A stretch of DNA of 64,000 nt from Myxococcota bacterium (GCA_039028615.1 JBCCHT010000025.1:64001-128000); one strand, 5' to 3'; counted from the stretch's first letter, positions 413 to 32,567 are shown. A program made the numbers and translations. Notes: generated by a model not told the origin, from the sequence alone.

Positions 413-1087
413 ATGCGCCCCTTCCAGCATCCAGCATGGCCCCACGTGCGCGCCGTGTTGATCGCGCTCCACGTCGCGTCGCTGGTAGTGCTTTCCCTGC
501 CCACGCCGTCGACCGTGCACAACAAGGCCCGCTGGAAGACCGCCAACGCGCAGGCCGATCTCGAGCAGATGGCCAAGCGCCTGCGCGGCTGGGGCATCGA
601 TACCGACCGTGAGCGTTTGACCCAGAGCCTGTGGGATCTCGGCGGCGCCTACCTGAAGGTCCAGCGCCCCTTGGTCGCGCCCTTCCACTGGTACTCGAAG
701 CACAGCGGCTCACGGCAGGGCTGGCGCATGTTCGCCAGTCCCCAGCGTCACCCGGCCGAGCTGCACGTCGACATCGAGCTCGATGGCGTCTGGGTGCCGA
801 TCTACCAGCCGCACTCCGACGAGTACGACTGGAACCGCGCCCAGTTCGAGCACAACCGCTTCCGCAAGTTCCTCGGTCGCTTCGCCCGCGGCTTCGTCCG
901 CACCCACTACGACCACGCCACCCGCTGGATCGCCACCAAGGCCGCCCGCGAGCATCCCGAGGCCACGCGGGTGCGGATCCAGCTGTATCGCTACGCCACG
1001 CCCGGGCCCGAGCAGGTCAAGGCCGGCATCCAACCCAAGGGTCGCTACCAGCACCCGCGACGCTTCGATGCGGAGGCCCTGCGATGA
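413..1087 (+). CDS. DUF5819/SdpA-like membrane-anchored protein, partner of HTTM protein
   Basis: N-terminal hydrophobic helix, QGWRMFASP motif; TGA overlaps ATG of downstream HTTM gene (ATGA). Confidence 0.65.
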   Translation: MRPFQHPAWPHVRAVLIALHVASLVVLSLPTPSTVHNKARWKTANAQADLEQMAKRLRGWGIDTDRERLTQSLWDLGGAYLKVQRPLVAPFHWYSKHSGSRQGWRMFASPQRHPAELHVDIELDGVWVPIYQPHSDEYDWNRAQFEHNRFRKFLGRFARGFVRTHYDHATRWIATKAAREHPEATRVRIQLYRYATPGPEQVKAGIQPKGRYQHPRRFDAEALR

Positions 1088-5638: not shown

Positions 5639-5914
5639 ATGAAACACCTACTCATTGAATCCGTATCGGTGGGCATCGCGATGATTGGCGTCTTGCTGCT
5701 GCATCCCATGACCGCGAGCTCAAATGTCGAGAATCATACGTCTTTGAGCGAATCCCGCGCCCAGCAGGAGTCCGCGCTCTATCTCGACAATGAGCCGCAA
5801 AGCGCGCATTTCGACCTCTCCTCGAAGCGCTGGTCTGTGACCGACGGCGAATCCACCGCATGGCTCGATGCCCGGACGGGCGAGCTGGTCGAGATCGAGT
5901 TCGGGGCGCCGTAA
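5639..5914 (+). CDS. Small hypothetical exported/membrane protein
   Basis: 91-aa ORF with hydrophobic N-terminus, C-terminal AWLDARTGELVEIEF; alternative start 5630. Confidence 0.5.
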   Translation: MKHLLIESVSVGIAMIGVLLLHPMTASSNVENHTSLSESRAQQESALYLDNEPQSAHFDLSSKRWSVTDGESTAWLDARTGELVEIEFGAP

Positions 5915-6075
5915 CGCACTCTTCGACACCGACCGCTCCTTGGCGGCGCCCCGGACCTCAGCGTCCGGCGACGCGAGCCGACGAGGAGCCGGGGTCGGGA
6001 TCGCAACAACAACTCGGGGCGACGGCCAGTACGCAGCCCGGGCGGAAGCCCGGCGCGGGCTGGCATGCGGCCACG

Positions 6076-9366
<3,291 letters not shown>

Positions 9367-9460: not shown

Positions 9461-11308
9461 CTACCGCTGGGCCGGGGCCACGGCACGAGCAACCAGTGCG
9501 GTCTGGCTGACGGGCACCACCTCCCCAGTGCTTCGATCGGCGAGCTGGAGGGCGTAGGCCGAGTCCTCGCTGATGTCGGCGCAGGCGTCGCGAGCCGGAC
9601 TGCATTCGAAGAACAGGGCAAACGAGGCATCCCAGGCCGGCTCGATGAACCACGAGAGGATCCAGTCACGGGCGAGAGGGCCGTCGAGTCGTTGCGGACG
9701 ACCGGGTCGCGACGCGCCGATGTCCACCGCGTGAAGGCTTCGCTCGCCCGTCTTCGGGTGCACCGCGCTGTACATCATGGTCGCGGGATCGCGCGTGGGA
9801 AAGAAGGAGAACAGAAACGGTGGCGCGGCAGCCCCCACCCGCTGGGACAGGCCCGGCTCGGCCCCCGAGAGATTGGTGCGGGCCAGCTCGTGCTCTTGCT
9901 CGTAGTACAGCCACGTCGAGGTCGGGTCGAACCATGGCCGATCGTGGTTGACCGAAGGCAGGTCGGTGAGCGGCACGGAGGGCCCGAGACCGGAGCCCGT
10001 GTACTCGGCCAGGTGCAGGACATCGGCTCCGGTCGGCATCCGCACGAGGTACAGCAGCCACCGCCCGTCTGGGGACCAGTCGAAGTGCTGGTGGAGGACC
10101 TGGCCGGGCGGGTCGGTATGAACGAGGCTCGCGGGCGATGGCGAGCCCGTCGCCAGATCCACGAAGTAGAGGTCCCCGCCGACCGCAACGCCACTCCAGT
10201 ACACGAGCGCGCTGCCGTCGGGGGCGAACGCGGGGCCCACCAGCCAGGGCCGCTCCGGGGGCACCGTGTCGATGCGGATCGGGTCAGCGGGCGTCGGTCC
10301 GGACAGATCGACGAAGTACAGCGCGTCCGGCAGCTCGGGCGAAGACCAGGGCGTCTCGAGGTAGGTCAGGGCCTGCCCTCCCGGAGCGACACGGGGCTCC
10401 ACCGCACGCCGCTGTGGATCGAGCACGGCGCTGACCCTGGCGATCGAGGCCGGATCGGGAGCGGTGAGCGAGGCGAGATAGACCTCGCCGGGCCCCTGTG
10501 CGGGGTTGGTCGCGAACGCCAACGTCTGACCATCGGGGCTGGGGTGCATGTCGTACAGGTCAAAGGGCGCGTCTTCGTCGTGGGGCACCGTCAACTCGGG
10601 CGCCTCGAGGACCCCGTCCTGATAGATCAACGTGAAGAGAGCCGCGTTGTCCGGCGGTGCGCCCTCGGCATGGTCACGAGCCCAGACGAGAAAGGTCTGC
10701 GTCTGCGGGATGTACTGCTCGATGGACAGCTGCGACGCCGCGGGCAGAGGGTCGACCCCGAAGGGCTGCGAAGCACCGGGTGTATCCGTGGAGATGTTCA
10801 CGACGAAGCACGACGTGTTGGGGTCCTCGTCGTCGCGGGTGCAGTAGGCCACCCCGTGCCCGTCGTCGACGACCTCGATCGAGTGGGTGAAGGTCGTGGG
10901 CGGCAGCGCGGGCGTCAGGGTCTGGGGTGCCGACAGCTCGCCCTCGGCATAGGTGTACAGCAGCGGCTCTCCGAGCCCACGAAACGAGGCGGTGTCGAAC
11001 ACGACAAAGCGTCCTCCACTGGGCTGCGCCCCTTCGGTGGTCTCCTCACCCTCGGACGATTCCTCGACGCCCATGGTGGTGTCGAGCGACCCCGTGCTGC
11101 CGGTCGCACCGACCTGGCCCGTCATCGATTCGGTGCCCGTGCCGAAGACCGTCGTGGACTCCTCCGCCACGCCCGTGGACTCTTCTGGGTCGATCGGGAC
11201 GATGGGGTCGCTGCAGGCCGCCCACGCCAGCGGGCTCGTGAGCGCGAGGGCCTGGAGGGTTCGTCGAACGCAGCGCCGTGACACGCCGAGCAACACTGCA
11301 TGGGCCAT
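9461..11308 (-). CDS. Lipoprotein with TolB/PD40-like beta-propeller
   Basis: Lipobox WAAC, Ser/Thr/Glu linker, repeated PSPDGQTLAF / FAPDGSALVY / WSPDGRWLLY blades. Confidence 0.75.
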   Translation of the reverse strand: MAHAVLLGVSRRCVRRTLQALALTSPLAWAACSDPIVPIDPEESTGVAEESTTVFGTGTESMTGQVGATGSTGSLDTTMGVEESSEGEETTEGAQPSGGRFVVFDTASFRGLGEPLLYTYAEGELSAPQTLTPALPPTTFTHSIEVVDDGHGVAYCTRDDEDPNTSCFVVNISTDTPGASQPFGVDPLPAASQLSIEQYIPQTQTFLVWARDHAEGAPPDNAALFTLIYQDGVLEAPELTVPHDEDAPFDLYDMHPSPDGQTLAFATNPAQGPGEVYLASLTAPDPASIARVSAVLDPQRRAVEPRVAPGGQALTYLETPWSSPELPDALYFVDLSGPTPADPIRIDTVPPERPWLVGPAFAPDGSALVYWSGVAVGGDLYFVDLATGSPSPASLVHTDPPGQVLHQHFDWSPDGRWLLYLVRMPTGADVLHLAEYTGSGLGPSVPLTDLPSVNHDRPWFDPTSTWLYYEQEHELARTNLSGAEPGLSQRVGAAAPPFLFSFFPTRDPATMMYSAVHPKTGERSLHAVDIGASRPGRPQRLDGPLARDWILSWFIEPAWDASFALFFECSPARDACADISEDSAYALQLADRSTGEVVPVSQTALVARAVAPAQR

Positions 11309-11431: not shown

Positions 11432-14245
11432 ATGCCGAGGCCGCAAGGCATACGCAGCGCCCGTCGGTGGCGAGCCCTCGTGATGGCCGCCCTCGTGAGC
11501 GCGTGCGGTGAGGCTCCAGAAGCGGAGGCCACTTCCCAGCCCATTGCCACCCGCGACGTAACGCCGAAACCTACGACCGCGGAACCGGTGACGATGGGGG
11601 CCGCCTTCTCCGGCTGCGAGCGGGTTCTCGTGGGCCCGGTGTGCCAGTTTCACCCCGGCAAGCTACCGCTGCGCGTATGGCTGGACCTCGACCCGCGGAT
11701 CCCCGCCTCGGTGCACATCGATGGCCGGCGGATCGACGCCCCCTCGATCCCCGTCGAGGGTGGTCAGCGCTTCGAGATCACGCCTCCCGACGACGCCCGG
11801 CACCTGGAGTTTCGCGCCACCCTCGACGAGGGACCGGGCGTGTTCCGGCTCCGGCTGGCACTGAGCACGCCGCAGAACCAGGTGCTGACCAACCTGTGGA
11901 TCCGCAGCAACGACCCCGCGAAACGGGCCGCGGTGCGCCGCGAACTCGAGACGCTGCCCGACACCCTGAATCCCGACGACCGCGCGGAGGCCCTGACGCT
12001 GCGCGCCGCCTTGGCCCGCGACGCCGAGCTCCAGAGCAACAGCTGGTACGACGAATACGACGACGCGATCGAGGCAGCGCTGAAGGTGGGGCGGCACAGC
12101 GACGCGGCCAACCTGGCGCATCAGGGGTCGTTCTTCGCCCTGCACTTCCGCAACGACGACCAGGCCAGCGAGGCGTGGCTTCGCCGGGCCGCGGAGTATG
12201 CCCGGGACGATCCCGAGCGCCGCATGGCTCAGGCGTACCACGAGGGGTTGCTCGAGCGAGCCCGCGGCAACACCCGGGCCGCCCTTCAGGCCTTCGAACG
12301 CAACGAGATCGAGACCCGCAAGCTGGGCTTGCCCGCCCGAGAAGCCAGCGTGTTGAGCGAGCAAGCCAACCTCGCCACCCGGCTGGGCGCCCACGACCGG
12401 GCGCGCGAGCTGGCGGCGAGAGCCCGGGAGCTCGAGGACGAGCTGGAGCCCGCCACTCGGGCCCAGCTGCGCAGCAACCTGGGGTGGATGATGCTCGAAG
12501 CACGCAGCCGGGGCGTCGCGACCGAAGATCCGCTGCCGCTGCTGACGGCCGCCTACGAAGAGCTCCACCCGGAGGATCCCCTGCGGCCCGACGTGCAGCT
12601 CAACCTGGGCTACGCCGCGATCTTGCGGGGCGATGCCGACGAGGGCCAACGGTGGCTCGACATGGTCGACGCGCCCTCGCTCGATCGCGTGGATGGTCTG
12701 TGGCTTCGTCTGTTCCGCGCCCGGGTCGCCCTGCTGCTCGGCAAGGCGGGCCGAGCCCAACGCGAGCTGCAAGCCCTGCTCGACGGGATTGAGCCCCACG
12801 ACGAGCTCGAGCTGCGCCTGCTGGCGCGAGTGGGCCTGGGGGAGACCCACGAGGCCCTCGGGCGAGCCGATCGGGCGCTGGCCGACTACCGAGCGGCCCA
12901 AGCCCTGCTCGACCGGCAGCTCCCGCGCATCGCCATCAACACGGGTCGCGGGCGCTTCGCGGCGGAGCGCAACGAGAGCACGCGTCGCATGGTCGATCTG
13001 CAGCTACGCCAGGGCGACACGGCGCAGGCGCTGTGCATCGCCCGACGCTCGCGAACTCGCGTGCTCCGAGTGCTCTCCCGGCAGCTCCGCCACCGCGCCG
13101 AGGCCTCGCCCGCCCACCTGAGCGCCCTGCAGCAGTATCGACGGCGCCGCAGCGAGCTCGAGTCCCGCTTCGACGAGAGCTTCACCATGGCCACGATCGC
13201 GGGTGAGCGCGAGCGCCGAGACCTGAAGGCCGCGCTCCTCGAAAACGAGCAGGCCCTCGATCGAGTCCTCGACGCGCTCGGGGCCACCGCTCCCGAGCCG
13301 GTCGCCTGCGAAGACCTACCCGCGCCCGGACCGGGACAGCTCGACCTGCACTACATGCGCCTGGACGACGGCTGGGTGGTCTTCGCTCACGACGACCGAG
13401 AACTCGCCGTGCACCGACTGGGGCCGCTGCCCCTCGACCGTGAGCCGGGGCCGATCGATTTCGATGCCGATCGCCTCGCCGCCTTGGGACAGACGCTGCT
13501 CGGTCCCCACGCGGAGGCCTTGGCCCGAGCGACGCAGGTCCGCGTCATGGCCACGGGCGCGCTGGGTCAGGTGCCCTTCCATGCGCTCCCCGTGGCGGGT
13601 GCGGGCTCGCCTCGGCTGCTCGAGCGCGTGGCGGTCGGGTACGGCCTCGACTTGCCGGGGCCACGGACCGCTGCGGCCGGGGGCTCGACGCTCGCCGTCG
13701 TCGTGGCGCCACCGAGCAACCTCGCCCATGCCCCGGCCGAAGTCGAAGCGATCGAGGCCTCGCTCGCCGCGTCGTTCAGCACGGTGCGGCGCCTGCAAGA
13801 TGGCCACGCCACCGGGCAGCAGGTCCGAGAAGTGCTGCCCCGCGCCACGCTGCTCCACTACGTCGGTCATGCCCGCGCCGAGGGCCTCGAAGGCTGGGAC
13901 AGCGCGCTGCAGCTGGCCCGCAACACCACGCTCGGCATCGGGGACATCCTCTCCACGGACCACGCCCTCCGCACGGTGGTGCTCAACGGCTGCGAGACGG
14001 GCACCGTCGATCCGCAGACCTTGGCGGGCGGCATGAGCCTGGCCCATGCCTTCGTGCTGTCGGGGGCGAGCACGGTCATCGCCACGACCCGGACCGTGGA
14101 CGACGCGGCCGCAGCGGAGCTGATGCGTGCCTTCCATGCCGAGCTGGCCACGGGCGCCACTGCGCTGCAGGCCCTTCGACAGGCCCAACGAGCCCGTCCG
14201 GCCACCGACGAGACCATGCTGCACGCACGCGCGTGGGTGCCCTGA
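11432..14245 (+). CDS. TPR-CHAT (caspase-like) protease with lipoprotein signal
   Basis: RRWRALVMAALVSAC lipobox; TPR-like helices; QVPFHAL, LLHYVGHA (His), VVLNGCETG (Cys), AFVLSGASTVIAT; alternative start 11423. Confidence 0.88.
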   Translation: MPRPQGIRSARRWRALVMAALVSACGEAPEAEATSQPIATRDVTPKPTTAEPVTMGAAFSGCERVLVGPVCQFHPGKLPLRVWLDLDPRIPASVHIDGRRIDAPSIPVEGGQRFEITPPDDARHLEFRATLDEGPGVFRLRLALSTPQNQVLTNLWIRSNDPAKRAAVRRELETLPDTLNPDDRAEALTLRAALARDAELQSNSWYDEYDDAIEAALKVGRHSDAANLAHQGSFFALHFRNDDQASEAWLRRAAEYARDDPERRMAQAYHEGLLERARGNTRAALQAFERNEIETRKLGLPAREASVLSEQANLATRLGAHDRARELAARARELEDELEPATRAQLRSNLGWMMLEARSRGVATEDPLPLLTAAYEELHPEDPLRPDVQLNLGYAAILRGDADEGQRWLDMVDAPSLDRVDGLWLRLFRARVALLLGKAGRAQRELQALLDGIEPHDELELRLLARVGLGETHEALGRADRALADYRAAQALLDRQLPRIAINTGRGRFAAERNESTRRMVDLQLRQGDTAQALCIARRSRTRVLRVLSRQLRHRAEASPAHLSALQQYRRRRSELESRFDESFTMATIAGERERRDLKAALLENEQALDRVLDALGATAPEPVACEDLPAPGPGQLDLHYMRLDDGWVVFAHDDRELAVHRLGPLPLDREPGPIDFDADRLAALGQTLLGPHAEALARATQVRVMATGALGQVPFHALPVAGAGSPRLLERVAVGYGLDLPGPRTAAAGGSTLAVVVAPPSNLAHAPAEVEAIEASLAASFSTVRRLQDGHATGQQVREVLPRATLLHYVGHARAEGLEGWDSALQLARNTTLGIGDILSTDHALRTVVLNGCETGTVDPQTLAGGMSLAHAFVLSGASTVIATTRTVDDAAAAELMRAFHAELATGATALQALRQAQRARPATDETMLHARAWVP

Positions 14246-14279
14246 ACGGGCTCACGCGCGCACGTGGTGTCGTCCGTCG

Positions 14280-15635
14280 TCAGCGAACCCAGACCAGCGC
14301 GTCGCCGTCTCCGACCGCCTCGAACTCGACCGTATCGCCCGGCTCCAGCCCCACGACCAACTCGTGCCGTTGGTGCCCCTGCAGGGAGTCCAAGGCCCCT
14401 ACGCGAACGCCATTGACGAGGATCTGGACCCCTCGAACCGAGACCGCCCCGCCGACGTGCTTGACGGTCATCGAGCTGCGCCCGTCGGTCCGCACGGGCA
14501 CCCGTACCCGGGCGGGACACAGGTACTCCCGACCTCGACCGTCGCTGCGCTCGAGGCTCCAGCGATCGCCCGGCTCCTCGCCGAACGAGTAGTTCTGCAC
14601 GATCTTCGGGCCCGCGACCGGACGACTCGACAAGGTCCGCAGCTCGGACCGAATGGCCGCCAGCGCCTCCAGCACCGTGCTCCACAGCCCCTCGCCGCTC
14701 GCCTCCGCGTCGTCGACCCACCCGAACATGTGGCGGCGCTCGCCGAAGTGGAAGTCGTTGACGTAGGGCGGCACCTCGAACTCTCCGCCGGGCAGCGGCT
14801 TGCGGTCGCGAGTCCACCACGCCCGCGTGATCCAGCCGCCCGGCGACAAGATCAAGTGCACGTCGTTGCAGCCCATGGGCGCCTCGTCGGGATCGCGCTC
14901 GCTGTCGGGCATGGGCTTGCCGTCGCGGGTCCAGTACACGCGCCACACTCGGAACGAGTCACCGTCGCGCTCGAAGTCGATGCCGATGTCGTTGGCGCCC
15001 TCGGGGGCCTTGCGACGCCGCATCTCCTTGCCGTCCTTGGTGTAGACCACCTCCGCACCAGCCGCCACGAACTCGAGGTGGAGGTCGTTGGCCTCGATCG
15101 GGGGTCGCTCGGCCGGGCCATAGCGTTGGCCGTCCCGCGTCCACACCAGCTGAATGTCCTCGGGCGGCTCTTGCTTCGGCCGCCACGGGAAATTCTCGAG
15201 GAGCCCGAAGTGCACGTCGTTGGGCTTCAGCGTCTCGAAGGGAAACTTGATGTCGCCGATCGGCGTGCCGTCGCGAGTCCACCACGCCGCCGTGATGTGA
15301 CCGCCGCCCCGCGGGAGGATCAGGTGACCGTCGTCCGCGCCCTCGGGCGCGGGCTGGGCCCCTCCCTTCATGCGCTCACCGTCGCGAGTCCAGTACATCC
15401 GCCGGATCGACGGCGCCCCTGCCGAGTACAGCTCGAAGTCGAACCCGACGTCGTTGGCTCCCTCGGGCGCGGGGATGGGCTTGCCGATCGGTTTGCCGCC
15501 ACGGGTGAACTGGGCGAAAGCCCCTCCCTGGCCGCCATTGAAGCGCAGATGCAGATCGTTGGCACCTTCGGGGATCCAGTCGATCGGCCTCCCGATGGGC
15601 ATGCCGTTGCGGGTAAATCGAAGTCTGGGGGTCAT
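14280..15635 (-). CDS. Uncharacterised repeat protein, 8 x (W/F/Y)T(R/K)xG...(N/D)DxH repeats plus C-terminal beta domain
   Basis: AAGGA SD upstream of ATG 15635; clear internal repeats in translation; no signal peptide. Confidence 0.8.
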   Translation of the reverse strand: MTPRLRFTRNGMPIGRPIDWIPEGANDLHLRFNGGQGGAFAQFTRGGKPIGKPIPAPEGANDVGFDFELYSAGAPSIRRMYWTRDGERMKGGAQPAPEGADDGHLILPRGGGHITAAWWTRDGTPIGDIKFPFETLKPNDVHFGLLENFPWRPKQEPPEDIQLVWTRDGQRYGPAERPPIEANDLHLEFVAAGAEVVYTKDGKEMRRRKAPEGANDIGIDFERDGDSFRVWRVYWTRDGKPMPDSERDPDEAPMGCNDVHLILSPGGWITRAWWTRDRKPLPGGEFEVPPYVNDFHFGERRHMFGWVDDAEASGEGLWSTVLEALAAIRSELRTLSSRPVAGPKIVQNYSFGEEPGDRWSLERSDGRGREYLCPARVRVPVRTDGRSSMTVKHVGGAVSVRGVQILVNGVRVGALDSLQGHQRHELVVGLEPGDTVEFEAVGDGDALVWVR

Positions 15636-15727
15636 TGCGGGCGTCCTTTTTTGTCGATGACGTGACCCATCGCCCTCGGCCGCCCACACCCGGGCGACCG
15701 AGCCCACGGGTCCGGTTGTGCGGGCCA

Positions 15728-15755
15728 TGGACGGCCACGAGCCCCCGCGTGACGG
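15728..15755 (-). promoter_or_regulatory. Putative ECF promoter CCGTCAC-N15-CGTCCA, copy 1, upstream of repeat-protein gene
   Basis: Minus strand reads CCGTCACgcgggggctcgtggcCGTCCAtgg. Confidence 0.8.
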
Positions 15756-15870
15756 ATCGATTTCGACCCCACCGAGGCCCACGTCGGCCCCGCCCTGCCG
15801 CCGAGGACCGACCACGGATCGAGGCCGTGGCGACCCGAAAACGGCGCTCCGCAATTTTGTTGCCGCGAAG

Positions 15871-15898
15871 CCGTCACATTCGATGACGATCGCGTCCA
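15871..15898 (+). promoter_or_regulatory. Putative ECF promoter CCGTCAC-N15-CGTCCA, copy 2, upstream of subtilase-sigma-antisigma operon
   Basis: CCGTCACattcgatgacgatcgCGTCCA, ending 10 nt before ATG 15909. Confidence 0.8.
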
Positions 15899-15908
15899 GG
15901 ACTCTCCG

Positions 15909-18098
15909 ATGGACCTTCGTCTCCCGTGCGTCTTTGGCTTGGTCGGCTCGCTCGCCTTGGTGGGCTGCCTCAACTCCAATCCTTCACAAACGTCCGCGAC
16001 CGGCCCCGGCGACGACAAGGGCGACGAAGGCACCATCATCGTTCCGCCCCCGCCCCCGCCTCCGCCTCCACCTCCGCCCCCGCCGCCCGTGGTCGAACCC
16101 GCGTGCCCCGGGAATCCGAATCCGACGCGGTACATCGCGATCATGGAGGACCCCGCCGCCTGCGTCGGCACGGAGGAGTGGAGCGCCGCGCCGCTGTTCC
16201 GAGCGCCGGGAACCGGGCTCGCCGTCGGTGCGCCCGGCCCGGTCGAGGTCGAGGCCAAAGCGGCGGCCGAGGCTCAGGTCCCGGCCGAGGTCGAAGAACT
16301 GGAGGCACCGCCCTCGCCCTGGCCGGAGCCCCTGCGGAGCTTCTGCGAGTACGAGTGGCGAGGCGAGACCGAAGTCCCCGGGCCTCCCGAGGTCGATGCC
16401 ATCGAGATCGATCCCGACTGCAATCGCTTGCTGCCCCAAGCCCCCGCGCGCAACACCATCGAAGACGACCGCAAGGAGCTGCGCCGACGGCAGGCGGTCC
16501 GCACCGAACTGGAGCTCGGGTTCCCCGATCGTCGCGGCCCCTCCCCGGTCGTCGCGAACGGACCCTACGTCGCCATCGTCGATACGGCCGACACCACCGC
16601 CCCGGGTGCCCCGACGCCTCCCTATTGGTCCGCCGACCCGAACCGAGCGTCCCAGCGACATGGCCTGATGATGCAGGGCCTGGTCGATGCGGTGCGCTGC
16701 TCCGAAAGCCCCGGCGACACCTGCCGCAACCGACGGTTCACGGTGCAGGCGTTCACTCGCGGCACCATCCCCGGTCAGCTCGGCAGCCTCGGCTCGCTGG
16801 CGCAAGCGCTGAGCGTAGCGATGGTGCAGTGGCAGGCCCAGCCCGACGCCGCCAATTCCGGTCTGGTGATCAACATGAGCCTCGGCTGGGATCTGCTGCC
16901 GTCGGAGGCCCTGGACGACAACCACATGAACCTGCTGCAGAACGGGCCCGACCCGGTCCCCGTGCCCGCCCGCGCGGTGCATGCCGCGTTGGCCTGGGCC
17001 GCCTGCCGTGGTGCGCTGAGCTTTGCGTCGTCGGGCAACGATCGGGGCATTGCGTGCGAGCAGACCGGGGCGATGGGCCCCGCCGCCTGGGAACAATGGG
17101 CCGCCCCCACGGCGGCCGCCTGCACGCCGCACTTCGGGGCGCCCCCCGCCAGCGTCACCGCGGGCAACGGTGCTCGCCTCGTGGCCGCGGTCGGCGGAGT
17201 GGAGATGAACGATCAACCGCTCGCGATCACCCGCCGCGGCAGCCTGCCCACACGAGTCATGTACGCCCACGAGGCGGTCATTGCCGTCGAGGGCGGTGCG
17301 TTCTCCGAGCCCTGGACGGGGACCTCGGTGCCCACCGCCGTGGCCTCCGCCCTCGCGAGCGCCCTGCCCAACCGCGGTCCCACGCCGACCCCCGCCGAGC
17401 GCCTGCAACGCATCGACGCCAGCGGAACGGCGATCGGCAAGCAGGCCGAGCTGTACCCCGGAACCCAGAGCTCCCCGGCCAAGCGCATCGACGTCCGCCA
17501 GGCCTCGGCCTTGGTCCGCCGCTTGGTGCAGCCGCCGAGCGCCCGGCCCCCGAAGGTCGACGAGGCCTTCGCCGCGCTGGTCTCCGGGCACTTCCCCGCC
17601 CCGGCCACGATGCTCGGCGTCAACCGACCGCGGTCGGGAGGCCCCGTCTGCGAAAACGCCGACGTGGACGCCTTCGGCACCAGCCCCGCCCGGCGGCAGC
17701 CCCAAGTCACGGACCTGGCCGCCGCCACCCGGCCGCAGCCCCACGTGCCGATCTGCCCCGACTGCACCATCTTCCGCCCCACGGGCACCACGCAGTACCA
17801 AATGACGGTCGACCTCGAGCCCGAGTACGAGCAGACCCGGATCGATCGAACGACGCTCAGCTTCTTCGACGAGAGCACCAACACCTTCCTGGTCGTGGAG
17901 CTCGATGACACCATCGACCCCGACGCGCTCCAGGTCCTCTCGCTCAATCGCCCGCAGCTGCCGGGCGGGGGCTCGCTCGCCGACTGGCTCGAAAATCGCC
18001 CTGCCGTCGTCAAGGGACGCGTCTCGTTCTCGGTCGACGACGGGAGCGGCAACCCGCCACAGATGGTCAACGAAGAGATCATCATCTCGCGACGATGA
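15909..18098 (+). CDS. S8 (subtilisin-like) serine peptidase lipoprotein
   Basis: Lipobox LVGC, poly-Pro linker; VAIVDT (Asp), RHGLMM (His), VINMSLG, SSGND (oxyanion Asn), TGTSVPT (Ser). Confidence 0.82.
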   Translation: MDLRLPCVFGLVGSLALVGCLNSNPSQTSATGPGDDKGDEGTIIVPPPPPPPPPPPPPPPVVEPACPGNPNPTRYIAIMEDPAACVGTEEWSAAPLFRAPGTGLAVGAPGPVEVEAKAAAEAQVPAEVEELEAPPSPWPEPLRSFCEYEWRGETEVPGPPEVDAIEIDPDCNRLLPQAPARNTIEDDRKELRRRQAVRTELELGFPDRRGPSPVVANGPYVAIVDTADTTAPGAPTPPYWSADPNRASQRHGLMMQGLVDAVRCSESPGDTCRNRRFTVQAFTRGTIPGQLGSLGSLAQALSVAMVQWQAQPDAANSGLVINMSLGWDLLPSEALDDNHMNLLQNGPDPVPVPARAVHAALAWAACRGALSFASSGNDRGIACEQTGAMGPAAWEQWAAPTAAACTPHFGAPPASVTAGNGARLVAAVGGVEMNDQPLAITRRGSLPTRVMYAHEAVIAVEGGAFSEPWTGTSVPTAVASALASALPNRGPTPTPAERLQRIDASGTAIGKQAELYPGTQSSPAKRIDVRQASALVRRLVQPPSARPPKVDEAFAALVSGHFPAPATMLGVNRPRSGGPVCENADVDAFGTSPARRQPQVTDLAAATRPQPHVPICPDCTIFRPTGTTQYQMTVDLEPEYEQTRIDRTTLSFFDESTNTFLVVELDDTIDPDALQVLSLNRPQLPGGGSLADWLENRPAVVKGRVSFSVDDGSGNPPQMVNEEIIISRR

Positions 18099-18154
18099 AC
18101 CTCGGGGCGACGGCTCTCGGACAGGAGGTCGTGATATGGTGCCGTCGCCCGAGC

Positions 18155-18745
18155 ATGACGCCCGAGGAGATCGACAGTGCGTGTCGCGGCGATGGCGACG
18201 CCCTGACCTCCCTGGTCGAGGTTCTGCTACCGGTGATCAAGGTCGAGGTCGTGGTGGCCCTCCAGCAACGATCGGGAGCCCGCGGGCGTGACGTCCGGCA
18301 AGACGTCGACGACTTCGTGCAGGACGTGATGCTGCATCTGCTCGACAACGACGGTCGCGTCCTCCAAGACTGGGACCCCGCGCGCGGGCGCTCGCTGCCG
18401 AGCTTCGTGCGCATGGTGACCCGCCACCGCGTCGCCCGGGTCCTCGAAGGATTCCGCGGCAATCCCTGGAGCACCGATCCGGTCGAGCACGAGGACCTCG
18501 AGCAGCTCCGCGCGGACACCAGCGGCACCTTTCGCCGCCTCGCCTCCCGCGACGAGCTCGCCCATGTGCTCGAGGCCCTGTGGGCACGGCTCGACGCCCG
18601 CGGCCGCGAGCTGTTCCAGCTGCTCTTCGTCGAGCAGCGCCCCACCGCCGAGGTCTGCGAGCGCATGCAGATGACCCCCGCCGCCGTTCGGCAGTGGACG
18701 GCTCGAATGCGCCGAAACCTGCGCAAGCTGGAGGAGGCGGCATGA
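18155..18745 (+). CDS. ECF RNA polymerase sigma factor
   Basis: Region 2 DVDDFVQDVMLHL...WDPARGRSLPSFV; region 4 LFVEQRPTAEVCERMQMTPAAVRQWTARMR; start may be 18095, 18131 or 18155. Confidence 0.88.
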   Translation: MTPEEIDSACRGDGDALTSLVEVLLPVIKVEVVVALQQRSGARGRDVRQDVDDFVQDVMLHLLDNDGRVLQDWDPARGRSLPSFVRMVTRHRVARVLEGFRGNPWSTDPVEHEDLEQLRADTSGTFRRLASRDELAHVLEALWARLDARGRELFQLLFVEQRPTAEVCERMQMTPAAVRQWTARMRRNLRKLEEAA

Positions 18746-19578
18746 CCGGCCCCGAGATCGACGAGCCGATGCTGGACGCGCTGGGCAAGCTCGAGCGCGA
18801 GCGCGCCGCGTCGATCCCCGCGGGGCTCGAGGACTACGTCGCGGGTCGACGCTCGGCCGAGGACGTGCTCGCCGAGGCGCCCCCCGAGGACCGAGAGCGG
18901 GTCCAAGCCATGCTCGACGCCCTCGGCCCCGCGGATCCCGAAGCGCCCCGGGCCTGGGCCACGCGGCTGACCGCTCAGCTCGAAGCTCGAGCCGCCGATC
19001 GAGCGGAGCCCGAAGCCGAACCCCCCATCGACCTGGCCGAACGCCGTCGCTCGCGGGTCGTGGTGTGGACGGTGGCGGCCACTGCCGTGGCCGCGGCCGC
19101 TGTGGCCGTGCTGACCCTGATGCCCCGGGGTCAGCCCGCACCCGAACCCGACGGAGATCCCCCTGCGGTCGGCACCTCCTTGCCCTCGTTCACGCTGACC
19201 GTGCGCGACTCTTCCGTGCAGACGATCCGCGGCGAGCCCGACCTGAGCAAACCCGCCCGCTACCTGCCGACCTCGCAGATCCACTGGGTGCTCAGCCCGC
19301 TACGCCCCCAGGACGGGCCGCTCGGCGTGCGCGTGCTGGCGCAGGACGACCAGGGCGCTCGACGCTTGCTCACCCCGGCCGAGCCGCGCCGACTCGACAA
19401 CGGGGCGATCGAGATCGAGGGTCGCTTGGCCCAGCAGCTCGAGCTTCCCGCCGGCCACTGGACGCTGCGGTTCGTCGTGGGTGAGCAAGCCTCGCTGCCG
19501 AGCGATCCGGCCGCCGTCGATCGGGGTGGCCCGTGGGTCGTCGCCGAGCCGGCCTACGTGGTGCACGTGACCGACTGA
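18742..19578 (+). CDS. Putative membrane anti-sigma factor
   Basis: ATGA overlap with sigma gene; about 105-aa N-terminal domain, one TM (VVVWTVAATAVAAAAVAVLTLM), C-terminal beta-rich domain. Confidence 0.7.
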   Translation: MTGPEIDEPMLDALGKLERERAASIPAGLEDYVAGRRSAEDVLAEAPPEDRERVQAMLDALGPADPEAPRAWATRLTAQLEARAADRAEPEAEPPIDLAERRRSRVVVWTVAATAVAAAAVAVLTLMPRGQPAPEPDGDPPAVGTSLPSFTLTVRDSSVQTIRGEPDLSKPARYLPTSQIHWVLSPLRPQDGPLGVRVLAQDDQGARRLLTPAEPRRLDNGAIEIEGRLAQQLELPAGHWTLRFVVGEQASLPSDPAAVDRGGPWVVAEPAYVVHVTD

Positions 19579-19675
19579 TCGGCACCGCCCACGCGGCGCC
19601 ACGAAGGAGCGATCCAGCCCGGCTCTTCGCAGGTCGGTGGGTCGCTCGTTTTTTTCACCCTCCGCGGTCACGACC

Positions 19676-19703
19676 CCGTCACGCCAGGGCCTGTCGCCGT
19701 CCA
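19676..19703 (+). promoter_or_regulatory. Putative ECF promoter CCGTCAC-N15-CGTCCA, copy 3, upstream of gene at 19829
   Basis: CCGTCACgccagggcctgtcgcCGTCCAtgg. Confidence 0.8.
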
Positions 19704-19828
19704 TGGAGGCGTAACCCCCCGGGCTCGCCGCTGGACTCCCCACCGCGGCGGGCCTCCGCCCGGGCGTGCGCCGCCGTACGACGGCGCACGCTCTGTCCCC
19801 CCCAAAAAAAAACAAAGAGAGACCGACA

Positions 19829-20980
19829 ATGGCGAAAGGCCGCACCTGGTGCATCGACTTTCAAACCGCCGCGACCAAGGCGGGCGACGTGAGCGTGAAG
19901 TATCGCGTCAAGCTCCCCAACGGCATGATCCAAGAGCTCAACGGTAGCTGGCAGGGCTACCCGATCGGCATGACCCCCGACGCGAAGGCGACCCGTTTTT
20001 TCAGGCGCCTGTCCACCGATCCCAACATGAGCTCGCTGGTCAACGTGTCCCGGGCCGGCAATACCGTCTGCTTTCAGCTCAAGGACGGCGCCCCCTACGA
20101 CGACATCGAGGGCATCGAGGTCGGCGACGAGACGGGACAGATCATCCACACCTACGACGATCCGCCGCCCGCCGACACCTCGCCGCTCGGGCCCCTCGAC
20201 ACGGTGCGGCTCGTGCTGTCCCCCAACGGGCGTCGCTCCGCCGAGGGCGGCAACGTGTGGCTGGGCATCGGCGTCACCGCCCCGCTCGTCTGCGTGCCCA
20301 CCCGACCCGAGGGCGGACGGCTCGACGTGGCCGCCGTGATCGAAGCGATCGTCAGAGCGTTCAACGAGGCGTACGCGGAGCTCGGCTACGAAGCCGCCCC
20401 CGGCAACGACGGCGAGGTCATCATCCCCGAGGTCCCCTGCAAGCTCGGCGTCCGCGGAGGGACCGACGACCCCGACCTGAGCTCCTCGCTCGGGCTGGTC
20501 AACCCGGCGGCGGGCGGCTTCGAACGGCCCTTCTCCAAGGCCGACGCGCTTCGGGCCGCCTTGGAGGTCATCGACGCCCGACTGCGCCGCACCTTCCCTC
20601 ATACCGCGGCCGGGGCCGGCATGGTGACCGGAGAGATCGCCCTGCAGGTGGTCGGCGGGACCGTGGCCGCGTGCCCCAACCCTTACGACGACGTCATCGC
20701 GGAACTCGAGGGCATCAAGGGCACCCTCGAGCGCCTGAAGAAGGGGCGCACCGACGCCCAGAAGAAGGCGCTCGAAGAGGCCCGCACCAAGATCCAAGAG
20801 GCGATCGACGGCCTCGAGAAGATGCGCGACTCCGACCCCAACGCGCCGAGCGAGGGTGACATCCAAAAGGCCCTCCGCGACGCGGCCGACAAGATCGACG
20901 AGGCCAACCCCAACCGCCGCAACGGCTCGCTGCGTCGCCAGGCCGACGCCCTGAGGGACATCGAGCGCAACCTGTTCTGA
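19829..20980 (+). CDS. Uncharacterised protein with C-terminal helical/coiled-coil domain
   Basis: 383-aa ORF, GC3-biased codons, A-rich leader, no signal peptide. Confidence 0.8.
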   Translation: MAKGRTWCIDFQTAATKAGDVSVKYRVKLPNGMIQELNGSWQGYPIGMTPDAKATRFFRRLSTDPNMSSLVNVSRAGNTVCFQLKDGAPYDDIEGIEVGDETGQIIHTYDDPPPADTSPLGPLDTVRLVLSPNGRRSAEGGNVWLGIGVTAPLVCVPTRPEGGRLDVAAVIEAIVRAFNEAYAELGYEAAPGNDGEVIIPEVPCKLGVRGGTDDPDLSSSLGLVNPAAGGFERPFSKADALRAALEVIDARLRRTFPHTAAGAGMVTGEIALQVVGGTVAACPNPYDDVIAELEGIKGTLERLKKGRTDAQKKALEEARTKIQEAIDGLEKMRDSDPNAPSEGDIQKALRDAADKIDEANPNRRNGSLRRQADALRDIERNLF

Positions 20981-21198: not shown

Positions 21199-22005
21199 AT
21201 GAACGATCATCATCCGCGGCTTCATCGAGCCGCAGGACTCGCCCTCGTGCTCGGCGGGTCGGCGCTCGCCGTCCTCGCGGGCGCATGCGACGTAGACCCG
21301 GCCGCGCGCACGGGCGGCCTCGTCGCCGAGGACCAGACGCGCATGCACGTCTCGGAGCTCCCCGACGGGGCGAGCGGCGATTCCTGCGTCGCGCGCTGCG
21401 GAACCTGGACCACGGGCGCCACGTGCCAGTGCGACGACGAGTGTGGCGAGTACGGAGACTGTTGCGACGACCTCGAGGTCCTGTGCACCGAGGACGATGG
21501 CGGCGTGGCCAAGGACCCCCTGGCCGAGTACTGCTACGACGTCGTCGACGAGCTATGGGACGGCATCGCGGACGAAGAGGCGATGCTCGAGGCGATCAAC
21601 GAGCGTCGCCAGCACGAGCAGGACTGCGGCACCGAAGGGGTATTTGCCCCCGCACCACCGCTGAGCCTCGATCCCTCCGCTCAGTGCGCCGCCCGCAATC
21701 ACAGCATGAACATGGCGAAGTTCGATTTCTTCGCCCACAACGATCCCGAGGGTCGACGCGTGAAGGACCGGCTCGATCTCGCGGGCGAGAGCTTCATGAG
21801 CGTGTGGGGCGAGAACATCCACGGTGGCTCCCCCACGGCCGAGGAGGCCGTCGATTCATTGATCAAGAGCGATGGCCACTGCGCCAACATCATGAGCCCC
21901 GACTTCACTCGCGTGGGCGTTGGCCATCACCCCGGTCCTACCGTCCACCCCGTCACTGCCGAGCCGCTGCATCACCTTTGGACTCAGGTGTTCTGGAGCC
22001 CCTAG
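21199..22005 (+). CDS. Lipoprotein with somatomedin-B-like domain and CAP (SCP) domain
   Basis: Signal ending LAGAC; SCVARC...CQCDDECGEYGDCCDDLEVLC; AARNHSMNM...FFAH...GENI...SDGHCANIM...WTQVF. Confidence 0.88.
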   Translation: MNDHHPRLHRAAGLALVLGGSALAVLAGACDVDPAARTGGLVAEDQTRMHVSELPDGASGDSCVARCGTWTTGATCQCDDECGEYGDCCDDLEVLCTEDDGGVAKDPLAEYCYDVVDELWDGIADEEAMLEAINERRQHEQDCGTEGVFAPAPPLSLDPSAQCAARNHSMNMAKFDFFAHNDPEGRRVKDRLDLAGESFMSVWGENIHGGSPTAEEAVDSLIKSDGHCANIMSPDFTRVGVGHHPGPTVHPVTAEPLHHLWTQVFWSP

Positions 22006-31226: not shown

Positions 31227-32567
31227 ATGAGCACGAAGGACAACCACAAAACCCCCACTCCCTTCTCGACCATTGCCCGCCATTGCCTCCCCGTAGCTCT
31301 GGCCATCGGTGCTCTCGCTCCCCTCGCCGTGAGTGCCAATGCGCCGGCCGACGACGTCGTCACCATGAGCACGAGCGACACCACCACCTGCGCGTCGACA
31401 GCCTCGGGCAAGGCCAAGTGCTGGGGCGCCAATGATGCCGGCCAGCTCGGTCGGGGCGACACCATGCCCCACGGCGACGACGAGCCGCTCACCGAGCTCG
31501 CCGCCATCGACCTGGACGGGTTCGTCGTGGACGTTCAGACCAACGGGCGACAGACCTTCGCCCTCATCGAGGACGGGCGCGTGTTCGCCTGGGGTGACAA
31601 CGGCAACGGTGAGCTCGGGCTCGGGCACACCCAGACGATGGGCGACGACGAGCCCATCAACGAGACGGAATTCGTGGTCGACCTCGGTGGGGCCGCCGCG
31701 ATACAGCTGGCGGTCGGGGATGGCTTCGCCTGTGCCTTGCTCGAGGACGGCGCCGTGCGGTGCTGGGGTGCCAACGATGTCGGGCAGCTCGGCTACGGCC
31801 ATACGGACACCATCGGCGACGACGAGACCCCCGCGAGCTCGGGCTCGGTGTCGCTGTGGGTCGGCGCCGTCCAGATCACCGCAGGCGCCGACCATGCCTG
31901 CGCGCTGCTCGACAACGGGCACGTGCGCTGCTGGGGGCTCAACGACGCGGGCCAGCTCGGCTACGGCCACACGGACACCATCGGCGACGACGAGCGACCG
32001 GGGGACCGAGGCCCCATCCCGCTGGGGGACGACGGCGTCGTGGAGCTGGTGGCGGGTGAGCGCCACACCTGCGCCCGCTTCGAGACCGGCGGCGTTCGCT
32101 GCTGGGGCGCCAACGAGTTCGGGCAGCTCGGCTATGGCCACACCGACTCCATCGGTGACGACGAGTGCCCCGCCGTGGCGGGCGACGTCGCCATTGGAGC
32201 CCCGATCGTCGCGTTCGACGCTGGTGCGAGGCATACCTGTGCCATCTCGAGCGAGGGCGGCCTGTACTGCTGGGGCGATGGCCTGGACGGGCAACTCGGC
32301 TACGGCACCGACGACGACATCGGTGACGACGAGTCGCCGCAAATGGCCGGTAGCCTCGATCTGCAGGGGCACCTCGCGACGTCCGTGTTCATCGGCCCGA
32401 CCGCGTCGTCGACCTGTGTGCGGCTCGAGGACGGCCACGTGCGCTGCTGGGGTCTGAACGACCTGGGTCAACTCGGCTATGCCGACACCGAGACGCGGGG
32501 AAACACACCTTCGACCACGCCCGGCCGAATTCCCGACGTGGTCGTGGCCGACGACGACGATGACTAG
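31227..32567 (+). CDS. Secreted RCC1-repeat beta-propeller protein
   Basis: Signal peptide ending SANA; seven CWGxNxxGQLGYG-type repeats, six with GDDE inserts. Confidence 0.9.
   Translation: MSTKDNHKTPTPFSTIARHCLPVALAIGALAPLAVSANAPADDVVTMSTSDTTTCASTASGKAKCWGANDAGQLGRGDTMPHGDDEPLTELAAIDLDGFVVDVQTNGRQTFALIEDGRVFAWGDNGNGELGLGHTQTMGDDEPINETEFVVDLGGAAAIQLAVGDGFACALLEDGAVRCWGANDVGQLGYGHTDTIGDDETPASSGSVSLWVGAVQITAGADHACALLDNGHVRCWGLNDAGQLGYGHTDTIGDDERPGDRGPIPLGDDGVVELVAGERHTCARFETGGVRCWGANEFGQLGYGHTDSIGDDECPAVAGDVAIGAPIVAFDAGARHTCAISSEGGLYCWGDGLDGQLGYGTDDDIGDDESPQMAGSLDLQGHLATSVFIGPTASSTCVRLEDGHVRCWGLNDLGQLGYADTETRGNTPSTTPGRIPDVVVADDDDD

Follow-up and report, generated by a model that had tools for sequence, protein, structure and literature searches.

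A widespread cassette of ECF sigma factor, membrane anti-sigma and CHAT lipoprotein in Myxococcota, with a predicted anti-sigma cleavage site

Main

In this work, we analysed a 64,000-nucleotide stretch of DNA from a Myxococcota bacterium (GCA_039028615.1, JBCCHT010000025.1:64001-128000; 'the window'), which lies within contig C25 of a 12.3 Mb genome of about 69% GC, and focused on six genes at positions 11,432 to 20,980. GC, genome size and gene content suggest that the source is a Nannocystaceae-like myxobacterium. At their core are a sigma factor of the extracytoplasmic function (ECF) type, a membrane anti-sigma and a lipoprotein that combines tetratricopeptide repeats (TPR) with a CHAT protease domain. 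This cassette is real and widespread, and it would be a CHAT-gated sigma switch of a new form; we found no description of it in the literature searched, where most subscription journals were outside coverage. From residue covariation, a predicted complex and natural gene fusions, we consider it probable that the CHAT protease cuts the anti-sigma between Arg163 and Gly164, that RseP follows, and that the sigma factor then drives the genes of a subtilase (S8) and of two further proteins, orf1 and orf2.

The cassette and its distribution

Gene calls recovered all six genes at the positions given by a first-pass annotation made by a model from the DNA alone. The CHAT lipoprotein (937 residues; 11432..14245, plus strand) has immunoglobulin-like, TPR and caspase-fold CHAT regions and is, from sequence and modelling, the likely site-1 protease. 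Between it and the S8 lipoprotein subtilase (729 residues, with a prodomain-like region, assigned by fold search and conservation; 15909..18098, plus strand) lies orf1 (451 residues; 14280..15635, minus strand). The ECF sigma (216 residues; 18095..18745, plus strand) and the single-pass anti-sigma (278 residues; 18742..19578, plus strand) follow, and orf2 (383 residues; 19829..20980, plus strand) closes the set. Two ATGA overlaps couple these genes: the one between sigma and anti-sigma noticed at first pass, and a second between S8 and sigma. The GC content at third codon positions of all six genes is 0.86-0.91. The CHAT and orf1 genes are convergent, and as orf1 intervenes and the promoter motif described below (CCGTCAC-N15-CGTCCA) is not found before the CHAT gene, we place CHAT outside the S8-sigma-anti-sigma operon.

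The CHAT domain matches Pfam PF12770 (E 1e-30), and its His/Cys dyad motifs, HYVGHA and LNGCETG, are present as first read, with catalytic His813 (position 13868, plus strand) and Cys854 (13991, plus strand) invariant in 25 of 25 aligned homologues; a lipobox ends at Cys25 (VSAC25, plus strand). Among solved structures, the only CHAT-domain match of the family profile is DdvA (8rot, E 3e-8), the CHAT-containing anti-sigma of Myxococcus xanthus. The sigma factor scores 53.2 bits against TIGR02937 (cut-off 42.9), with the Pfam r4_2 region above and r2 below cut-off, and a PDB search returned one unnamed ECF sigma (E 6e-4). The anti-sigma has one transmembrane segment (residues 106-124), as do 61 of 65 members of its family at a hydropathy of 1.6 or more, between a cytoplasmic helical N-domain and a periplasmic beta domain. 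No Cys or His occurs in the N-domain and no zinc ligands are evident there; the periplasmic domain has no solved homologue by sequence.

About 12 related cassettes occur in this genome, one of them truncated by a contig end. The CHAT family profile matches 55 of 73 genomes of the taxonomic family and none of 16 genomes sampled from other families at E 1e-40, and the S8 profile matches 17 of 250 genomes outside the family; the S8 family encompasses 1301 protein clusters (50% identity) at E ≤ 1e-30. The co-occurrence of the four genes, suggested at first pass as a check, is common in relatives: 16 of 23 S8 loci carry all four, three have CHAT and S8 only and four have S8 only, three of the latter on short contigs. 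We assembled a discovery set of 74 CHAT loci (75 rows minus one kinase-TPR false positive). Sigma and anti-sigma lie within 3.2 kb in 51 of the 57 loci with full flanks; the window itself misses this cut-off because orf1 intervenes. In 73 further loci, 58 of 74 CHAT open reading frames (ORFs) have sigma and anti-sigma, and 42 of these also have S8. The core of the cassette is sigma factor, membrane anti-sigma and TPR-CHAT lipoprotein.

S8 loci from other families (n = 20) carry CHAT in 17 cases and all four parts in 12. In six of the 20 (L192, L194, L198, L199, L202 and L207), anti-sigma and CHAT form one ORF, which places the two in one compartment and in a DdvA-like order. Three of these fusions (L198, L199 and L207) keep the arginine loop described below and have lost both acidic pocket residues.

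Two side observations concern the sigma genes of these loci. The L043 cassette is split into several frames, with a transposase-like gene (labelled by eye) interrupting sigma. At 14 of the 168 loci, a second and different ECF sigma adjoins the cassette (a density of 7 per Mb compared to 2 per Mb in this genome; L047, L060, L079, L080, L082-L085, L089, L090, L096, L098, L135 and L149); most of these are cassettes of the small-CxxC type described below, from the same genus as the window's genome.

Covariation between protease and anti-sigma

The predicted CHAT cleavage site, Arg163-Gly164 (19228..19233, plus strand), lies in a periplasmic loop of the anti-sigma and is drawn from conservation, covariation and the complex model. 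Arg163 is kept in 51 of 65 anti-sigmas within an otherwise variable loop, and the next residue is Gly, Ser or Ala in 47 of these 51; where Leu, Gln, His, Asp or Phe replaces the arginine, the following residue is still small. When each CHAT of the discovery set was paired with its neighbouring anti-sigma, Glu at CHAT position 770 (13739, plus strand) accompanied Arg in 50 of 50 pairs compared to one of 10 non-Arg pairs, and Asp at position 891 (14102, plus strand) in 42 of 50 compared to none of 10. These two putative S1 residues are the top two CHAT columns, and among 4536 inter-protein column pairs the highest rank goes to E770 with R163 (phi 0.94). In a fresh set, E770 is present in 48 of 49 Arg pairs, the exception being a gene fragment, and a Trp-Gly lineage (S8-type cassettes L170 and L172) has Ala at this position, a candidate natural switch of specificity. 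Pooled over 127 full-length pairs, E770 and D891 occur together in 93 of 106 Arg pairs and in none of 21 non-Arg pairs. Within this genome, the Arg-type pair of the window has Leu-type paralogues in the C13 and C7 cassettes.

In clan CD proteases, specificity for P1, the residue before the scissile bond, is set by alpha1/L1, L4 and L5, and the Arg preference of MALT1 by Asp365 (alpha1) and Glu500 (L5) (PMC4357240). By sequence pattern, E770 would sit on the helix after the first strand (alpha1) and D891 just past the fifth strand (L5).

The structure prediction that the first-pass annotation had proposed as a check, of CHAT with the periplasmic part of the anti-sigma, points to binding. We modelled CHAT 73-937 with anti-sigma 144-278 and obtained an ipSAE (interface score from predicted aligned errors) of 0.77 compared to 0.08 for the best control, with contacts agreeing by at least 96% between runs and a partner predicted local distance difference test (pLDDT) score of at least 85. 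Of 157 solved complexes, 116 attain the score mark, compared to two of 215 mismatched pairs, rates that are only rough for custom alignments. The CHAT interface comprises residues 761-765, 812-815, 852-855 and 888-892, that is, loops with both catalytic residues and D891, plus 584-591 (plus strand), a predicted exosite; on the anti-sigma side it spans residues 148-165, 174-190 and 218-224. The most confident contacts join CHAT 584-589 to anti-sigma 183-188 and 222. The model supports binding between CHAT and anti-sigma and is compatible with either cutting or blocking.

In the DegS/RseA/RseP scheme, a site-1 cut precedes a site-2 cut by RseP and the release of sigma. In the cassette, the anti-sigma would hold the ECF sigma at the inner membrane, as family knowledge and gene coupling suggest, and the TPR-CHAT lipoprotein would dock on its periplasmic beta domain through the 584-591 exosite. 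On activation by a signal, CHAT would cut after Arg163, seated in an acidic S1 pocket formed by E770 and D891. RseP, two genes for which score over cut-off in this genome, would then cleave the truncated anti-sigma within the membrane, a step modelled on DdvA, and the freed sigma would transcribe from promoters of the form GTCAY-N16-G(T/A)C(C/A)A before S8-sigma-anti-sigma, orf1 and orf2.

Covariation and model speak for occupancy of the active site, not for cleavage, and would equally suit a loop that acts as an inhibitory pseudo-substrate, docked but uncut, with the true substrate of CHAT elsewhere (S8/CxxC or a foreign protein) and sigma freed by displacement of the complex. In gingipain, S1 receives an Arg of the prodomain that is placed unfavourably for cleavage (PMC4357240), DdvA dyad mutants had no phenotype at rest (PMC11506125), and the CHATs of L101 and L102 with Phe at the catalytic His column still have an anti-sigma. 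Yet the residue after P1 is small (Gly, Ser or Ala in 47 of 51) even where P1 is Leu or Trp, as expected for a scissile bond; the dyad is kept in nearly all CHAT members; and some 40 residues separate the site from the transmembrane helix on its outer side, a place at which site-1 cleavage would make the helix accessible to RseP. We regard a pseudo-substrate as unlikely.

Several points nonetheless weigh against cleavage at Arg163 as the trigger. The tree (built with FastTree) shows only four changes of P1, too few for a sign test (median p 0.5) to attain 0.05. Among the Arg pairs from outside the family, five are without E770 (L198, L199, L207, L208 and L209), the first three of which also lack D891, and three non-Arg pairs keep E770 (L092, L173 and L174); one pair, L145, has its Arg two residues off the aligned column and was assigned to the Arg class manually. 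The assignment of E770 and D891 to alpha1 and L5 does not come from coordinates, the interface residues listed for the complex do not include E770, and the 49-row alignments fed to the complex model consisted of Arg-type pairs only. DdvA catalytic mutants still repressed sigma and activation was not seen (PMC11506125). The family promoter pattern, finally, was widened after upstream regions had been viewed, as given with its counts below.

Some CHATs depart from the pattern of the family. Two (L101:5015-7864 and L102:4847-7843) have, besides the Phe at the His column, an Arg in place of E770 together with a Gln-Gly loop, and are possibly inactive or re-specified. Another (L101:9884) has Arg at the E770 position and Asp at P1, as in true caspases.

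Promoter motif and cargo genes

The first-pass annotation had reported a promoter motif common to the operon and two orphan genes, and exact copies of CCGTCAC-N15-CGTCCA stand upstream of orf1 (15728..15755, minus strand), 10 nucleotides before the S8 start codon (15871..15898, plus strand) and upstream of orf2 (19676..19703, plus strand). These are the three exact copies in the 64-kb window, compared to none in any of 100 shuffles, and account for three of the five copies genome-wide, where about 0.9 are expected. The copy before S8 would drive S8-sigma-anti-sigma and hence autoregulation; use of the motif by the sigma factor is inferred from sequence.

Across the family, the pattern GTCAY-N16-G(T/A)C(C/A)A stands before 14 of 64 S8 genes in sense orientation, compared to none in antisense and 0.13 expected, the 14 including the window's own S8 and the pattern having been widened after upstream regions were viewed. 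The S8 genes that carry it include ones whose transcription is separate from that of sigma. A length-based scan found the pattern before none of 151 CHAT ORFs and none of 31 small CxxC genes, and a relaxed form of the window motif, GTCAC-N15-CGTC, is not enriched across whole relative loci (7 versus 11 expected). We found no common motif upstream of 38 small CxxC genes and therefore do not claim their products as sigma outputs.

Flanking cargo, whose variation had been put forward as a further check, does vary: searches of 72 other genomes of the family and of every other fetched cassette locus yielded neither orf1 nor orf2, and in the closest relatives (L031-L034 and L054) CHAT and S8 are contiguous. 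We interpret both genes as exchangeable, genome-specific cargo, a reading that rests on sequence comparison. Their restriction to this genome would also suit chance neighbours of a real core, outside the regulon. But the 13-base motif stands before both in exact form, identically spaced and on the correct strand, and in L179 a 51%-identical homologue of orf2 directly follows another CHAT/sigma-like/anti-sigma-like cassette, which makes mere chance very improbable.

L179, on a contig of 54% GC, is one of three metagenome loci for orf2, the other two being short contigs. Its genes encode, in order, an exported TPR-CHAT, a sigma-like protein, a membrane anti-sigma-like protein (with an Arg-Ala loop, by eye), a DUF4394 protein and the orf2 homologue. 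The CHAT keeps E770 and D891, but the sigma and anti-sigma of this locus do not match the family profiles, and we therefore treat L179 as a distinct type of cassette that shares the layout. Within L179:4031-5600, a repeated promoter-like motif of its own (GAAACCTTTT..AGATTTCG.CATTAA) was seen by eye before the anti-sigma-like and DUF4394 genes.

The two cargo proteins had been described as cytoplasmic; neither has a signal peptide, and the only basis for that location is the absence of a hydrophobic segment. Orf1 consists of two modules of ~36-residue WTRDG...ANDxH beta repeats, a helix and a C-terminal jelly-roll-like domain. Its model is of low confidence (pLDDT 52; best fold match Z 8.6, to generic jelly rolls), the Atlas gave no usable match, and its one homologue differs at the C terminus. 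In the protein P0002, what follows the orf1 repeat module is a C-terminal region unlike that of orf1; it contains a DSQAS motif, looks retropepsin-like by eye and has no Pfam match. Orf2 has five homologues with a common N-terminal region of ~250 residues and variable C termini; in three of them (P0005, P0006 and P0008), C-terminal ANDLH...WTxxG motifs weakly recall the orf1 repeats (best pairwise E 8e-5). Atlas leads for orf2 (0.90-0.93, with low shared-feature counts and a template modelling score below 0.5) point weakly to phage structural-type proteins and serve as a lead only.

A stress or defence response had been suggested for the locus. For defence we found no positive evidence: PADLOC returned no match for any of the six genes, and, as first stated, the window holds no array resembling CRISPR among its 20 largest repeat families.

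The subtilase and small CxxC proteins

The S8 protein has no Pfam match and no meaningful PDB sequence match, and a profile library returned only a weak match to mycosin (E 2e-5). Its AlphaFold model (predicted template modelling score 0.71) matches subtilisins in Foldseek (E 1.5e-9, probability 1.00), and since sequence searches alone are insufficient, its identity as a subtilisin rests on this fold search. The Asp/His/Ser triad and lipobox read at first pass are present: D225, H251 and S473 are kept in 95 of 96 homologues, Asn377 in 96 of 96, and the lipobox Cys20 (LVGC20) is invariant in 21 of 21. Its C-terminal beta domain (residues 609-729; 17733..18095, plus strand), with the pattern PQP-x-P-x-CxxC and both Cys kept in 92 of 96 homologues, resembles stand-alone secreted CxxC proteins encoded in other cassettes.

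In the 74 discovery loci, this slot holds S8 in 30, a small CxxC protein in 31, both in none and neither in 13, counts for which 23 loci were chosen through S8 and 26 small proteins were picked by eye. As the swap between S8 and small protein involves only two changes on the CHAT tree, a Fisher p for exclusivity overstates the case. The main small-protein family aligns with the S8 C-domain in HHalign (probability 88%, score 35.8), compared to scores of 16.7-19.0 for 20 controls in which CxxC was kept and the rest scrambled; on removal of CxxC the homology is lost (probability 1.4%), and two small-protein subfamilies gave no significant match (3.5-3.7%). A hidden Markov model of the small proteins found no members in the 73 new loci, where by eye a small CxxC gene is present in 10 of 26 S8-less loci; the count for exclusivity rests on the discovery set.

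The first-pass annotation had suggested cleavage of the anti-sigma by a protease cascade in the envelope. In such a cascade, the subtilase would work ahead of CHAT or in sequence with it, either switching CHAT on or cleaving the anti-sigma itself, and neither protease could be spared. The action of CHAT on the anti-sigma is well supported; the two-protease mechanism is not. A protease-free CxxC protein replaces S8 in 31 of 74 CHAT loci and none has both, a sigma-type promoter precedes S8 genes even when they are transcribed apart from sigma, and the conserved anti-sigma site follows the CHAT pocket residues. As S8 looks like a sigma target and the protease is dispensable in about half of the discovery-set cassettes, an obligatory cascade is unlikely, even though all three triad residues persist in 95 of 96 S8 homologues, S8 adjoins CHAT at loci without a nearby sigma and anti-sigma (L035-L037, L195, L196 and L210), and myxobacteria have a known two-protease cascade, SAVED-CHAT to PCaspase (bioRxiv 2023.06.23.546230). 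A sigma-induced S8 could still yield positive feedback.

Because of its sigma-type promoter, S8 looks like an output or feedback part of the sigma switch. Feedback by S8 or its CxxC domain is plausible, and this domain is the piece that cassettes have in common, probably as a partner or modulator of the cognate CHAT. We raise the tentative possibility that the cassettes are paralogous, self-insulated extracellular circuits, in which a secreted CxxC domain, stand-alone or freed from the subtilase at the PQP linker, would be a ligand or inhibitor of its own CHAT, which would cut its own anti-sigma at a co-evolved P1 (Arg, Leu or Trp). If so, a multicellular myxobacterium would signal from cell to cell through a dozen channels in parallel, each caspase-gated, wired with feedback and fitted with outputs that can be swapped.

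Returning to cleavage by CHAT, the family offers one predicted scissile bond (R163-G164), named pocket residues (E770 and D891) and natural Arg, Leu and Trp variants within one genome or family, and with these in hand periplasmic anti-sigma proteolysis by a caspase-fold enzyme is testable with two purified domains. The paralogous protease/anti-sigma/promoter sets of this large family (1301 S8 clusters) could act as orthogonal switches.

Other features of the window and cassette surroundings

Upstream of the CHAT gene, the window encodes a Ser/Thr kinase with TPR repeats (5860-9366, plus strand) and, divergent from CHAT, a PD40/WD40-like beta-propeller protein with a lipobox-like N terminus (9461-11281, minus strand), which has two paralogues in the genome and was not seen beside the 23 relative S8 loci. 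A link to a neighbouring Ser/Thr kinase was considered and rejected, as kinases occur near cassettes at 10 per Mb versus 21 per Mb in this genome. Just downstream of orf2 is a gene for a CAP/SCP-domain protein with a somatomedin-B domain (~21199-22005, plus strand). Further along are a protein with ~57-residue RCC1-like repeats (31227-32567, labelled by eye) and a 2865-residue protein with ~108-residue repeats (48670-57267). A cassette elsewhere (G000:C1:371794-375178) adjoins a run of six or so paralogous genes for ~110-residue proteins, putatively akin to Reb/killing-trait proteins.

Comparison with known systems

In regulated intramembrane proteolysis of the DegS/RseA/RseP type, as proposed here, a site-1 cut outside the membrane is followed by a site-2 cut by RseP, sigma release and autoregulation. 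Unlike DegS, the predicted site-1 enzyme here would belong to the clan CD cysteine proteases and have its gene in each cassette; paralogous protease/anti-sigma pairs can number a dozen or more per genome, with lineage-specific P1 residues.

CHAT proteases also cut sigma-associated proteins or start cascades in the type III-E Csx29/Csx30/CASP-sigma and type III-B SAVED-CHAT/PCaspase/PCc-sigma modules (bioRxiv 2023.06.23.546230; see also PMC10028731). Whereas those modules are described as cytoplasmic and triggered by CRISPR RNA or cyclic oligoadenylate (bioRxiv 2023.06.23.546230), the window CHAT carries a lipobox for export, scores 16.7 bits against the Csx29 model NF041237 (cut-off 300) and was seen without Cas genes nearby.

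The set of genes resembles that of ECF54, in which the sigma gene lies beside a TPR-CHAT and a subtilase and proteolytic control has been proposed (PMC7826278 supplement; PMC8999054). In these sources, however, ECF54 is 100% actinobacterial, without an anti-sigma, and has a carboxypeptidase-regulatory-like gene at +1, whereas the +1 gene here encodes a single-pass membrane protein with no carboxypeptidase-regulatory-like Pfam match. The promoters differ as well, GTATCAG/CTCC in ECF54 (PMC7826278 supplement) compared to GTCAY/G(T/A)C(C/A)A here.

The proposed mechanism has a parallel in DdvA/DdvS of M. xanthus (PDB 8rot and 8rw5), which likewise comprises an ECF sigma, a single-pass anti-sigma and a periplasmic TPR-CHAT with a His/Cys dyad, and for which a site-1 cut by CHAT followed by RseP was proposed, not shown (PMC11506125). 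Six out-of-family relatives are fused in the DdvA order; in the window, by contrast, CHAT is a separate lipoprotein gene. The window anti-sigma has a periplasmic beta domain of ~135 residues with the Arg-Gly loop where DdvA has a helical scaffold, and its periplasmic profile misses 8rot; DdvA has a zinc-binding anti-sigma domain, unlike the N-domain here with its lack of Cys and His. An S8/CxxC partner is added. The regulon of DdvA/DdvS comprises CRISPR and cyclic-oligonucleotide-based antiphage signalling (CBASS) genes, whereas none were seen in the window, where the nearby promoter copies stand only before S8, orf1 and orf2. The system in the window would thus work as DdvA/DdvS does, but in separate parts and with a gene set like that of ECF54; it is not itself a member of the DdvA/DdvS type.

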